Assembly (NCBI GenBank): GCA_963762565.1
Contig: CAVXLD010000007.1
Location: forward strand, 288,001 to 352,000
Reading direction: 5' to 3'
DNA length: 64,000 nucleotides
Source of the DNA: an uncultured Verrucomicrobiae bacterium
GTDB taxonomy: Bacteria > Verrucomicrobiota > Verrucomicrobiia > Chthoniobacterales > JAFAMB01
Shown here: in pieces, positions 31,010-33,767 of the stretch
Position numbering within the stretch: position 1 is the first letter of the stretch
Layout of the letters: each line of letters opens with the position of its first letter
Position numbers and translations under genes: made by a program
The notes under the pieces: model-generated
Database searches by the model: none
Told to the model about the DNA's origin: nothing
The model's input: only the letters and a program-made list of their open reading frames with translations

Positions 31010-31690
31010 CTAGTGGCGCAAAACCGATTGCACAATAATGTCTGCTGTGCGCTCGAAGCCGAGTTTAGCGGTGTTTAGGACGAGATGATAGAGCAAAGGG
31101 TTATCCCCATCAGCGTCGAAATAGCGTCTTACGTAGCGACGCCGAGCATGATCCTCGTCTGAGACTTTCAGTGCTGCTTCATTCGGCGACATTCCATAGA
31201 ATTCCACTGCGTGGTCAATTCGTTTCGACAATGGCGCAACTAGTCGGACATGAAGGACAGAAGGTAAAAGCTGAGTAATTACCTCTGCACCTCGACCTAC
31301 TACGACGACTCTGCCCATACTGGTGAGTCGTAGAATCGTCTTGGTTGTTTGTTGGACCAACGACCAAGAAGTTGGATGGAGCCCTAATAGTTCTTCCACA
31401 ATCGACTGAATCGGTAGCCGCGCATCCTCAACCATAAACTCTTCTAAGCGTGATGGAAGCTTATGCTCGACTAGGACTTGTTTCGCCAGGTTCTTATCGA
31501 AAACCGTCCAGGCGGCTTCATTCGCTGCCGGCTTTTTGATTGCGTTTAGGCGATCAACGACTAACTGCGCGACGGTACTGGCGCCGGCCCCTGATTCCCG
31601 CGAGATCGTGATCGATGGTTCTCGGGGGCGGGGCGCCTTCTCTTTGATGGCTACCTGCAGCTGCAGGTAGCGACGGAACATTTCAAGTGC
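31010..31690 (-). CDS. Cytidylate kinase-like family protein, native N-terminus apparently replaced by IS110 sequence
   Basis: ITISRESGAG P-loop-like motif, VVVGRGA, LHVRLVAP, YHLVLNT. Confidence 0.85.
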   Translation of the reverse strand, partial: ALEMFRRYLQLQVAIKEKAPRPREPSITISRESGAGASTVAQLVVDRLNAIKKPAANEAAWTVFDKNLAKQVLVEHKLPSRLEEFMVEDARLPIQSIVEELLGLHPTSWSLVQQTTKTILRLTSMGRVVVVGRGAEVITQLLPSVLHVRLVAPLSKRIDHAVEFYGMSPNEAALKVSDEDHARRRYVRRYFDADGDNPLLYHLVLNTAKLGFERTADIIVQSVLRH

Positions 31691-32145
31691 TGGACCCAAG
31701 ATAGCTCCCCGCTTGCTGGCCGAGATTGGCGACGACCGCGAGCGCTTCGGCGATGACGCTCAAGGGCTGCAATGCCTGGGCGGAACAGCCCCAGTGACCA
31801 AACGTTCCGGAAAACAGCGCAAATACTGGCACGTTCATCAGCGCTGGGCGTGTGACAAACACCTTCGCCACACTCTGCATCTGTTTGCTGAGCAGAGTCT
31901 GTCCCGTTGCGTTTGGGCCGAGCTCTACTATCAGCATCATCGCCAAAAGAACCAAAGTCACGCCAATGCCTTACGCCGGCTCGCTAACCGCTGGCTCAAA
32001 ATCATCTACAAAATGTGGACCCATCGAACTCCTTACAACGCCGAGCTCCATCACCGCAATCAACTCCAGCACGGATCTTGGATCTTTCAGCTCAAAGTAA
32101 CTTAACCCCTAACCTATTTTTCCCCTTGAAGACCGATAGAAAGTC
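31685..32145 (+). mobile_element. IS110-family transposase remnant (C-terminal domain only) with short right end
   Basis: GPKIAPRLLAEIGDD, GTAPVTKRSG (catalytic Ser), ALRRLANRWLKIIYKMW; N-terminal DEDD domain absent; boundaries approximate. Confidence 0.85.
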
Positions 32146-32174
32146 TTTCGGGGCTGGAATAGGTTAGAAAAGGC

Positions 32175-33145
32175 ATCCCGTCCTGTAGGGACGCTGTGAT
32201 CTCTATCCCTGGCTGTGCCTGAGAGCTAACGGCGCCGTTGACCGACTCAATCATACCGTCCCGCTGGGACGGGGCACCTTTTTATACGCACCCCAGGCAG
32301 TAAACTGCCTGGCTAGTGCGCCGTGGAACGCGCATCACAGCAGGTGAGAGTCCTGCATTGTTAAACCGTGAAAGAACAAGAAGTACAAAGTAAGGGCGTT
32401 GTCGAGAGGCGGGGTCTGAAGCAACCGAGTACGAGACACCTAGTCCGCAACGCAAGTGAACACGATTCGGCAAGGCAAGCTGGTGAGCCTGCTAGCCAAG
32501 AGCGAAACCAAGTCCGCCAAGAGCGGAACCAGTGGCATTCACAGAGCACGGGAAAGGATGGCCATTGGAGCTTGTCGGGTGGTTGGTGGTGGAATGGGAG
32601 TCGAAGTGATGAGCGGTTAACACGGGAGAACCACGTAGAGAACGAGACTGGCGTTCATTCCGCTGAGAGGGCAAAGAGGGCGGACAAAGAACCAGGCTAC
32701 GTGGAAGTCAGAGCGTCCATAGTAGCGAAGAAGCGGGGTAACGCCCGTGGAGCCAAGGGACGTAGGAAGATAGAACGAATCAGGTCAGCCGGAAGGAAGA
32801 AAACCCCGTTAGTGATCAACCTCTTGAGAGCTCGATCTATACAAGGGTGGAGAACTCTGTCCCGCGAAGGGAGCACAGAGGAATACCTTCCAGCCAACAC
32901 TGATCCATTGCTGGCAGGCTGCCGCAAACGGCAGTCAGACACCGGGGAAAAGCAAGCCCGATGTCGCCGAACCTCGAACTTTCTCGTTGAGGTTCCCAGG
33001 TTCAATTCGGCATGTCAGTCTCACTGTAGACCCTATCGACTGGAGAGCCGGATGCGGGAAAACCGCCTGTCCGGTTCGGAGGGAGGGGCGGCTCCAATAC
33101 AGTCGTCCCTACCCCTATCCTTCATTCAGTCCCTTCGGGACAAAC
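32175..33145. repeat. REP-like multi-palindrome element split by the group II intron
   Basis: Three related palindromes gtcctgtagggac, gtcccgctgggac and gtcccttcgggac, plus hairpin ccaggcag-taaa-ctgcctgg; flanks rejoin as ...cctggcta|ccttcattcagtcccttcgggac. Confidence 0.7.
32316..33118 (+). ncRNA. Group II intron, ORF-less (803 nt)
   Basis: 5' GTGCG at 32316; domain V GAGCCGGATGCGGGAAAACCGCCTGTCCGGTTC (33045-33077, AGC triad); domain VI with bulged A, ending ..CCCCTAT; candidate EBS1 TAGCCA (32493-32498) complementary to the 5' exon end TGGCTA; no RT ORF. Confidence 0.92.
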
Positions 33146-33203
33146 GGCTTCGCCGCGAATTCGCAGCCCCGTAAAAGACCGGGTTTTTCAACAGCCTGCG
33201 GGG

Positions 33204-33767
33204 CTATAATCTATCAGCGCTTCGCGCCTTACTTTGCGGCAGCCGCCGAACTCCCGTCTTTTGGCGCTTCGCCCCGGACTTCCGAAGTTCTGAACCCATT
33301 TTCTCGTTATATATCAAGACCGAACACCGGGCTTGATGCATAATATTGGACGGTTCATTCAGGCCAAAAAGACTGCTAAGGATATTCGAATTGTGGCTAC
33401 CGGTCACAATCAGATCAATATCATTATCATAAGCAAACGCGGCAATTTCATCTGCCGGATCTCCGACCAAAAAGGTCCATTCAGCTTCAGGCACAATCTG
33501 GCGGACCTTCTTGGTTAACTGGTCGAGTCGGGTTGCTTTTTCATGACGTCGTTTTTCGAACGCGCGAACCGTTCCTTCTCCGGCAAAATCGTACCTTGGT
33601 TCCGCGGGAAAGACGTGAGCCAAAGTCAGATCGGCATGGAAAGATTTGGCAACTCTTGCCGCGAAAAACGCCGTAGCTTCGGAGTGCTTTGAAAGATCGA
33701 CTGCTACCAAGATTCGATCAGTTGCTTTTTCTGCTTTACCCGACGAACTAAGAGACAGAGTTTTCAT
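33204..33767 (-). CDS. Universal stress protein
   Basis: ILVAVDLS, GDPADEI, DLIVTGSH, ARCSVL. Confidence 0.9.
   Translation of the reverse strand: MKTLSLSSSGKAEKATDRILVAVDLSKHSEATAFFAARVAKSFHADLTLAHVFPAEPRYDFAGEGTVRAFEKRRHEKATRLDQLTKKVRQIVPEAEWTFLVGDPADEIAAFAYDNDIDLIVTGSHNSNILSSLFGLNEPSNIMHQARCSVLIYNEKMGSELRKSGAKRQKTGVRRLPQSKARSADRL

Follow-up and report, generated by a model that had tools for sequence, protein, structure and literature searches.

An 803-nt group II intron without an open reading frame (ORF) was found in a 64-kb stretch of contig C7 (C7:288001-352000) from the genome of an uncultured Verrucomicrobiae bacterium (assembly of 6.1 Mb in 15 contigs, 93.7% complete). This whole stretch is termed the window, and positions given without a contig name refer to it. 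The intron interrupts a multicopy repeat of the repetitive extragenic palindromic (REP) type, 3 nt behind a hairpin. We consider it, with a probability of roughly 0.85, to be a non-autonomous retroelement which is specialised on REP hairpins and which spreads by retrohoming with a reverse transcriptase (RT) supplied in trans. The analysis supports the interpretation in the original prediction, which had been derived from the letters of the window alone.

Ribozyme structure and missing RT gene

The intron is a complete-looking group II ribozyme without an RT gene (coordinates in Table 1). Its 5′ end, GTGCG at 32316, fits the GUGYG rule, and its 3′ end, ...CCCCTAT at 33118, places AT at 33117-33118 in agreement with the AY rule. 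The Rfam model for domains V and VI (RF00029) matched positions 33043-33118 with 54.8 bits (gathering score 40, E 5.1e-8), which was the only RNA match at gathering level within the window. The predicted GTGCG start, domain V at 33045-33077, and domain VI ending in AT are borne out by the letters and by this covariance-model match. In the consensus fold of eight copies, domain V is formed by the pairs 732-740/756-764 and 741-744/750-753. The bulged A of domain VI (column 798 of the eight-sequence alignment A2) is unpaired between the pairs 771/797 and 770/799. Without domain IV, the intron comprises approximately 540 nt.

The absence of an RT ORF, as predicted, was confirmed in two ways. The only long frame across the intron (32368-33174, 268 amino acids) contains 0 Pfam families and was, given this result, treated as spurious, and tblastn with the intact intron-encoded protein (IEP) of a relative found nothing within the 803 nt at E ≤ 10. 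The two domain IV hairpins named in the original prediction, ctctgtccc..gggagcacagag at 32855-32880 and ctgccgcaaacggcag at 32919-32934, were found in the sequence as well as in the minimum free energy fold of 32775-33042 (z −2.77). Compensatory changes were detected in alignment A2 at ten predicted pairs, three of which (546/561, 632/644, and 667/677) are located in domain IV.

Pairing of EBS1 with the 5′ exon

The hexamer TAGCCA, which had been proposed as exon-binding site 1 (EBS1), is the sole exact complement of the last six exon letters, the intron-binding site 1 (IBS1), among the first 450 intron nucleotides. When 37 related introns or lineages are aligned (A1), it falls in a 12-nt terminal loop closed by two short helices. 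The six closing pairs are 95-100% paired and show compensatory changes, as in the column pairs 33/59 (GC 31, AU 5, GU 1) and 34/58 (CG 31, UA 3, GC 2, UG 1). The relatives carry 24 distinct EBS1 5-mers at the aligned position, each of them pairing with its own 5′ exon end. At least five contiguous EBS1-exon pairs were present in 53 of 87 candidate junctions, compared with a mean of 8.1 and a maximum of 16 when the exons were shuffled among the introns; the list of 87 junctions includes spurious internal GTGCG sites and many kin sequences, and its counts are descriptive. The pairing comprises 6 bp here and 5-8 bp in the relatives, and GGCTA is retained at every other filled site of the 803-nt lineage. 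Judged from this covariation between loop and exon and from the closing stems, TAGCCA lies in the EBS1 loop of domain Id and pairs as EBS1 with the end of the 5′ exon, as proposed at the outset.

A second pairing, EBS2-IBS2, was sought in the first 420 nt of the intron at 57 junctions by means of complements to the exon upstream of IBS1, and no recurrent position was found. The offsets of the best complements were scattered, and no covariation with the exon was seen in the variable region preceding the EBS1 stem.

The target is a multicopy GTAG-type REP

Removal of the intron had been predicted to rejoin a multi-palindrome element. The rejoined sequence matches natural empty copies of a repeat elsewhere in the genome (e.g., C5:512829-513065 and C7:389406-389470), and its 5′ part is 90% identical to the empty copy at C5:512829-512948. 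The repeat is about 90 nt long and consists of ATCATACCGTCCC-nnn-GGGACGG, a spacer, and CCAGGCAG-TAAA-CTGCCTGG-CTA/C-n-ATCAT-nn-AGTCCC-nnn-GGGAC, where the slash marks the intron site. On the minus strand, hairpin 2 reads GTAG followed by CCAGGCAG-TTTA-CTGCCTGG and thus represents a GTAG-tagged REP with an 8-bp stem and a 4-nt loop; REPs of this type are marked by the tetranucleotide GTAG at one end of the palindrome (PMC3733652).

A repeat profile built from ten natural empty copies gave 91 matches in the genome, among them a match at C7:320250-320315 (nhmmer, model positions 2-66) which is interrupted at the intron. Of the 91 matches, two are filled and 46 represent empty sites that carry the intact core GCCNGGCTA/C; four further empty sites have a different first 3′ letter. 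The remainder has one mismatch in the core (ten matches) or lacks the core (29 matches). The rejoined flank is therefore not a single-copy sequence. There are 24 adjacent inverted pairs, i.e., on opposite strands, among the matches.

Three small Y1_Tnp genes are each located between a minus-strand and a plus-strand copy of the repeat. The one Y1 protein tested matched PF01797 with 99.8 bits and passed the IS200/IS605 model NF033573 (72.3, cut-off 55). It failed the model for REP-associated tyrosine transposases (RAYTs), NF047646, with 24.6 bits (cut-off 80), which is why the system is named REP/RAYT-like by context and not by protein family. The RAYT of Escherichia coli cleaves the GTAG tag on single-stranded DNA (PMC3733652). 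Since the intron splits the tag as G/TAG, a filled REP is left without an intact tag, and the entry of the intron may disable that REP for the transposase.

Insertions in sister genomes and metagenomes

Parts of the intron were matched in 25 of the 43 genomes of the bacterial family, this genome included. Two genomes of the same genus carry an approximately 90% identical version at contig ends; in the same-genus genomes G031 and G032, the interior of the intron is unassembled. At nine of the ten 5′ junctions in same-genus genomes, which belong to different loci, the intron comes after the same REP hairpin and ..GGCTA; the remaining junction is located outside any REP, yet ends in GGGCTA. On the 3′ side, five of six junctions run into REP hairpin 3. 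A metagenome search with a 22-nt lineage-specific word yielded seven contigs, five with complete copies (802-805 nt, 89-92% identical), one with a copy truncated at the contig border, and one unrelated. All visible junctions on these contigs (six at the 5′ end and six at the 3′ end) lie in the REP, again at different loci. Together with the second copy in this genome, which also resides in the repeat, these junctions speak against unrelated targets of the other intron copies.

No variation was seen in EBS1, domain V, or the 3′ end among these copies of the lineage. An ORF-containing form was not present in any of the seven metagenome contigs, and the loci L028 and L088 contained no clade intron with an RT. 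Because the RT-less copies of 802-805 nt sit in REPs at different loci, the ORF-less state is old relative to the approximately 10% divergence of the lineage, with insertions continuing meanwhile. As a separate observation, the metagenome contig L183 (3130 nt) carries the 803-nt intron, complete or in pieces, at least three times and in both orientations and represents a heavily colonised REP cluster.

The hairpin rule in the wider clade

Full-length relatives of about 1901 nt with an intact 444-amino-acid RT+X protein, as well as ORF-less forms of 743-756 nt, were found in other genera of the family. The IEP of this clade matched TIGR04416 (NCBIfam) with 380.7 bits and contains the Pfam domains RVT_1 and GIIM, with no endonuclease domain. 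IEPs with 53-62% identity occur in records titled Acidobacteriota, Planctomycetota, Chloroflexota, Pseudomonadota, and others, and the nearest named records are metagenome-assembled genomes of Verrucomicrobiae, Chthoniobacterales, and Ca. Udaeobacter.

In the genome G021, the full-length form (1901 nt) and the ORF-less forms (747-756 nt) have a common EBS1 and target, which makes trans-mobilisation plausible in the relatives. In one of these ORF-less forms, the N-terminus of the IEP is still recognisable as remnants (tblastn, 8.8e-9). The domain IV of the others is non-coding, about 170 nt long, and conserved in the ORF-less forms of G023, G025, and G027 as well. Two ORF-less introns are arranged head to tail at the locus L040 (G025:C15:88100-91630; starts at 1733 and 2479). 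The second has as its 5′ exon the terminal letters of the first (..CCCTACCCTAT/GTGCG), which its EBS1 does not match; the pair may have arisen by tandem duplication or by an atypical insertion into a 3′ splice site.

One lineage of G023 occupies the same REP position as the 803-nt intron. The targets of the relatives are also multicopy: when up to two mismatches are allowed, G025 contains 68 matches and G021 contains 424, compared with 0 for the reversed-pattern control. The 22-nt target motif of G021 often forms inverted pairs about 35 nt apart and is a very abundant REPIN-like family, whose sequence is unlike that of the repeat in the window.

Of 45 unique junctions spread across phyla, 35 lie 0-6 nt (mode 3) behind a perfect stem of 6 bp or more, compared with 151 of 2000 positions drawn at random from these loci. 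CTA precedes the intron at 15 of the 45 junctions; where the 3′ end of such an intron was located (11 cases), the exon always resumes with C, giving the complement of GTAG. In the clade, 28 of 32 located 3′ exons start with C. The original prediction of a non-autonomous retroelement adapted to a multicopy repeat holds for the multicopy REP target; the special adaptation of this particular copy does not, since hairpin targeting belongs to the whole clade across phyla.

Features of the locus and its surroundings

Table 1. Features of the intron, its exons, and the associated repeat system.
Feature	Position	Strand	Remarks
ORF-less group II intron	32316-33118	+	803 nt, GTGCG...CTAT; second copy at C7:389586-390388
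5′ part of domain I	32338-32455	+	weak Rfam group-II-D1D4-4 match
EBS1 stem-loop of domain Id	32482-32509	+	stems 32482-32484/32507-32509 and 32487-32489/32501-32503; loop 32490-32500
EBS1 (TAGCCA)	32493-32498	+	6 bp with the 5′ exon end
Conserved domain II/III segment	32709-32775	+	intron positions 394-460; 84-94% identical in relatives from other genera
Domain IV	32776-33040	+	about 265 nt, non-coding, several hairpins, no RT remnant
Domain V	33045-33077	+	9-bp basal helix, AGC triad, 2-nt bulge, 4-bp distal helix, 5-nt loop GAAAA
Domain VI and 3′ end	33078-33118	+	bulged A at 33111
5′ part of REP-like element (5′ exon)	32198-32315	+	profile core 32250-32315
REP hairpin 1 (CCGTCCC-GCT-GGGACGG), then T run	32256-32272	+	terminator-like
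REP hairpin 2 (CCAGGCAG-TAAA-CTGCCTGG)	32293-32312	+	8-bp stem ending 3 nt before the splice site
IBS1 (TGGCTA)	32310-32315	+	last 6 nt of the 5′ exon, complementary to 32493-32498
3′ part of REP-like element (3′ exon)	33119-33199	+	first C is the presumed IBS3
REP hairpin 3 (GTCCC-TTC-GGGAC)	33129-33141	+	in the 3′ exon
Y1 transposase genes flanked by inverted repeats	C7:408772-409116; C3:712536-712877; C3:55497-55838		

Directly upstream of the REP cluster, a C-terminal fragment of an IS110-family transposase is encoded (31713-32105, plus strand, 130 amino acids; PF02371, E 4.4e-8). The N-terminal part is missing, and a minus-strand ORF (31010-31699) is found in its place. A terminator-like site was identified at 32258-32275 plus ACCTTTTTAT. 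A T run lies downstream of this plus-strand unit and another downstream of a second GTCCC..GGGAC unit at 32173-32194 on the minus strand, each on the strand of its unit, and the pair of units resembles a bidirectional terminator between the transposase fragment and the minus-strand gene at 33204-33767.

Proposed mode of homing and alternative explanations

The homing site would be one fixed point of the multicopy REP, 3 nt behind the GC-rich 8-bp hairpin and inside the complement of the GTAG head. There, the EBS1 loop (TAGCCA) would pair with the last five to six exon letters (GGCTA), and one fixed intron base probably pairs with the first C of the 3′ exon. Judging from class IIC introns, recognition of the hairpin itself probably substitutes for an EBS2-IBS2 pairing. 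According to established group II biology, the excised RNA would reverse-splice into the DNA strand carrying ..GGCTA/C, and the cDNA would be made by an IEP supplied in trans. As the IEP of the clade contains no endonuclease domain, priming from nascent DNA at the replication fork, with use of the single-stranded DNA there, is proposed (PMC4424553). Both the splicing activity and the trans-mobilisation of the 803-nt intron are what we infer from these comparisons.

The second copy of the intron in this genome differs at four of 803 positions (799/803, 99.5% identical). Downstream, the two copies agree over 23 nt (33119-33141 and C7:390389-390411) and have unrelated flanks thereafter. This stretch varies in other REP copies; its identity here could be due to preference for a particular 3′ exon or to co-conversion in the course of homing. 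An RT-encoding sibling, for which a search had been suggested, was found in part: a sibling intron of 1914 nt (C7:605990-607903) has conserved parts in common with the 803-nt intron, but its RT gene is broken. The only intact group II RT of the assembly is an RT/maturase of 453 amino acids on contig C11 (G000:C11:224500-226000; L074, 1168-2667), which matched TIGR04416 with 382.5 bits and is 35% identical to the IEP of the clade. The domain V/VI match next to it reached 39.3 bits, just under the cut-off, and neither a clear 5′ end nor a domain I match was found at this locus, which is a second, distant intron type in this genome.

Several findings weigh against a specialised retroelement that is mobilised in trans. 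The group-II-D1D4-4 model, whose use had been suggested together with RF00029, matched domain I, but with 31.1 bits (E 1.5e-4 in a 2.5-kb search) it stayed below the gathering score of 49; the sibling (L003), the G021 relative (L056), and the C11 locus (L074) remained without a hit to the Rfam D1-D4 models at E ≤ 0.01. Many of the sequences counted are mutually related, so that the counts overstate independence, and it is by analogy that we infer that the structure of the hairpin, and not its sequence, is recognised. Only two of approximately 52 sites carrying the target core are filled. The RT gene of the sibling is interrupted by one TGA, one TAA, and one frame break, and the EBS1 loop of the sibling mismatches its own exon. 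Present-day mobility in this genome is unproven, because no intact cognate RT was found in the 93.7%-complete assembly. A spliced or empty joint was not detected in two DNA and two RNA runs, in which contigs cannot show absence. Six candidate RNA runs each covered only 7-9% of the sampled words. Contigs of two metatranscriptome libraries contain 93-95% identical pieces, including domain IV, which is not proof of transcription; one DNA run matching the intron may be the source sample.

The missing cognate RT, the low number of filled sites, and the absence of a spliced form in the four runs would also be expected if the two genome copies were dead relics, which no longer splice or move and persist as REP regions are neutral. 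We regard this as rather unlikely. The length of 802-805 nt, EBS1, domain V, and the 3′ end have been kept over about 10% divergence, compensatory changes occur in several helices, and many independent insertions are found in related genomes, which argues for a recently active lineage. The two copies in this genome may nevertheless be stranded at present, because the RT gene of their one close sibling is broken.

Much less probable is a multiplication of the intron as passive cargo of the REP or REPIN, either by a Y1 (RAYT-like) transposase or by REP recombination instead of retrohoming. The host repeat itself is thought to be mobile (PMC3733652), the 3′ flank is identical over 23 nt in both genome copies, and the genome contains no intact cognate RT, all of which would fit such a scenario. 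In contrast to the almost identical introns, however, the 64-nt upstream REP flanks of the two copies share only 47 of 64 positions and have different spacers and loops, and the flanking REP units also differ from copy to copy on both sides in the sister genomes and metagenomes. Furthermore, insertion always occurs at the same phosphodiester bond, and the copy located outside a REP after GGGCTA is predicted by EBS1 pairing but not by REP transposition.

Beyond the specialised retroelement proposed for this genome, a broader reading of the data is tentatively put forward. A cross-phylum clade of endonuclease-less introns outside class IIC might home to DNA hairpins, with about one-third of its lineages carrying REP-head letters (TAG plus stem) in EBS1 and inserting inside the RAYT-recognised GTAG. 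Long-lived ORF-less lineages in Verrucomicrobia-type soil bacteria would then be parasites on two levels, depending on the RT of another intron and on a non-autonomous mobile repeat.

Comparison with known systems

Class IIC introns, such as B.h.I1 of Bacillus halodurans, are similar in several respects. They insert a few nucleotides behind a stem-loop in intergenic regions with low harm to the host, have no EBS2 but a stem-loop in place of IBS2, and encode an IEP without an endonuclease domain (PMC1702495, PMC4424553). The closest solved relatives of the clade IEP are also IIC reverse transcriptases (7uim, 3.2e-62; 6ar1, 1.2e-60; compared with 8.4e-46 for 6me0), REP hairpin 1 just upstream of the insertion looks terminator-like, and the abstract of the class IIC report names 'other inverted repeats' as sites (PMC1702495). 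Class IIC is, however, characterised by CGC instead of AGC, a domain V distal stem shortened by 2 bp, and an EBS1-IBS1 pairing of 3-4 bp (PMC1702495). The intron described here has kept AGC, a 4-bp distal helix, and a 5-nt loop in a domain V of 33 nt in all, pairs over 5-8 bp within its clade, and has a ribozyme of about 540 nt instead of about 400 nt. Moreover, IIC introns insert after intrinsic terminators and not in REPs, and the lineage described here is ORF-less. An ordinary class IIC intron behind a terminator or attC stem-loop, with nothing new about it, is therefore a most improbable explanation.

The IIC-attC introns (S.ma.I2 lineage) are comparable as a sub-lineage that settled on a single family of repeated hairpin-forming recombination sites, the attC sites, which are recognised as single-stranded DNA by a tyrosine recombinase (PMC7923331). 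They differ in intron class, and attC and the integrase take the place of the GTAG-type REP and the Y1 HUH transposase. In the passages of PMC7923331 on target sites, upstream stem-loops are reported only for IIC introns. The hairpin-dependent site choice of a ribozyme that appears IIB-like departs from the earlier picture, in which this habit is described for another intron class only, and it offers a testable system for how a group II ribonucleoprotein reads a DNA hairpin.

With the classes IIE and IIF (e.g., Cl.be.I2 and Pe.th.I2), the intron has in common an IIB-like ribozyme, a 5-nt domain V loop (here GAAAA), and a length outside the IEP within 450-700 nt, as well as an endonuclease-minus IEP in its clade and EBS1-IBS1 as the decisive pairing (PMC3753933). 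The account of these classes in PMC3753933 describes an apparent EBS2-IBS2 pairing, and its passages mention no upstream stem-loop, whereas here a hairpin is present and no EBS2 was detected. By its ribozyme traits, the intron is provisionally described as IIB-like with an E/F-type domain V.

ORF-less introns are described as rare in bacteria and nearly always found beside a closely related intact intron (PMC4424553, PMC3245105). Those which use the IEP of a related intron resemble the present case in being non-autonomous and in sharing the genome with a related ORF-containing intron. In contrast, the related RT is broken here, and the ORF-less introns form a lineage of their own, which occupies REPs in several genomes over about 10% divergence. 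Such lineages of constant length at many sites run counter to both the rarity and the intact partner given in these sources, and they suggest that searching soil bacteria by domain V would uncover many more protein-less introns than searching by the RT gene.

A full-text literature search over passages of accessible papers returned no account of group II introns that have specialised on REPs as a lineage. Both subjects appear in the Minerva preprint, which draws no connection between them. The nearest entry comes from Pseudomonas putida KT2440, where two of nine copies of a group II intron are listed as REP-associated, which is a loose association (PMC1525189). The target found here is the signature motif of REP/RAYT systems, and its occupation links two kinds of selfish DNA, both of which act on single-stranded hairpins. 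The use of REPs as safe landing sites is shared with REP-targeting insertion sequences, namely ISPpu9, ISPpu10, ISPa11, and IS1397 (PMC1525189). These are DNA transposons, whereas the association of the intron with the REP is exact to the site and is accounted for by pairing of EBS1 with the complement of the REP head.

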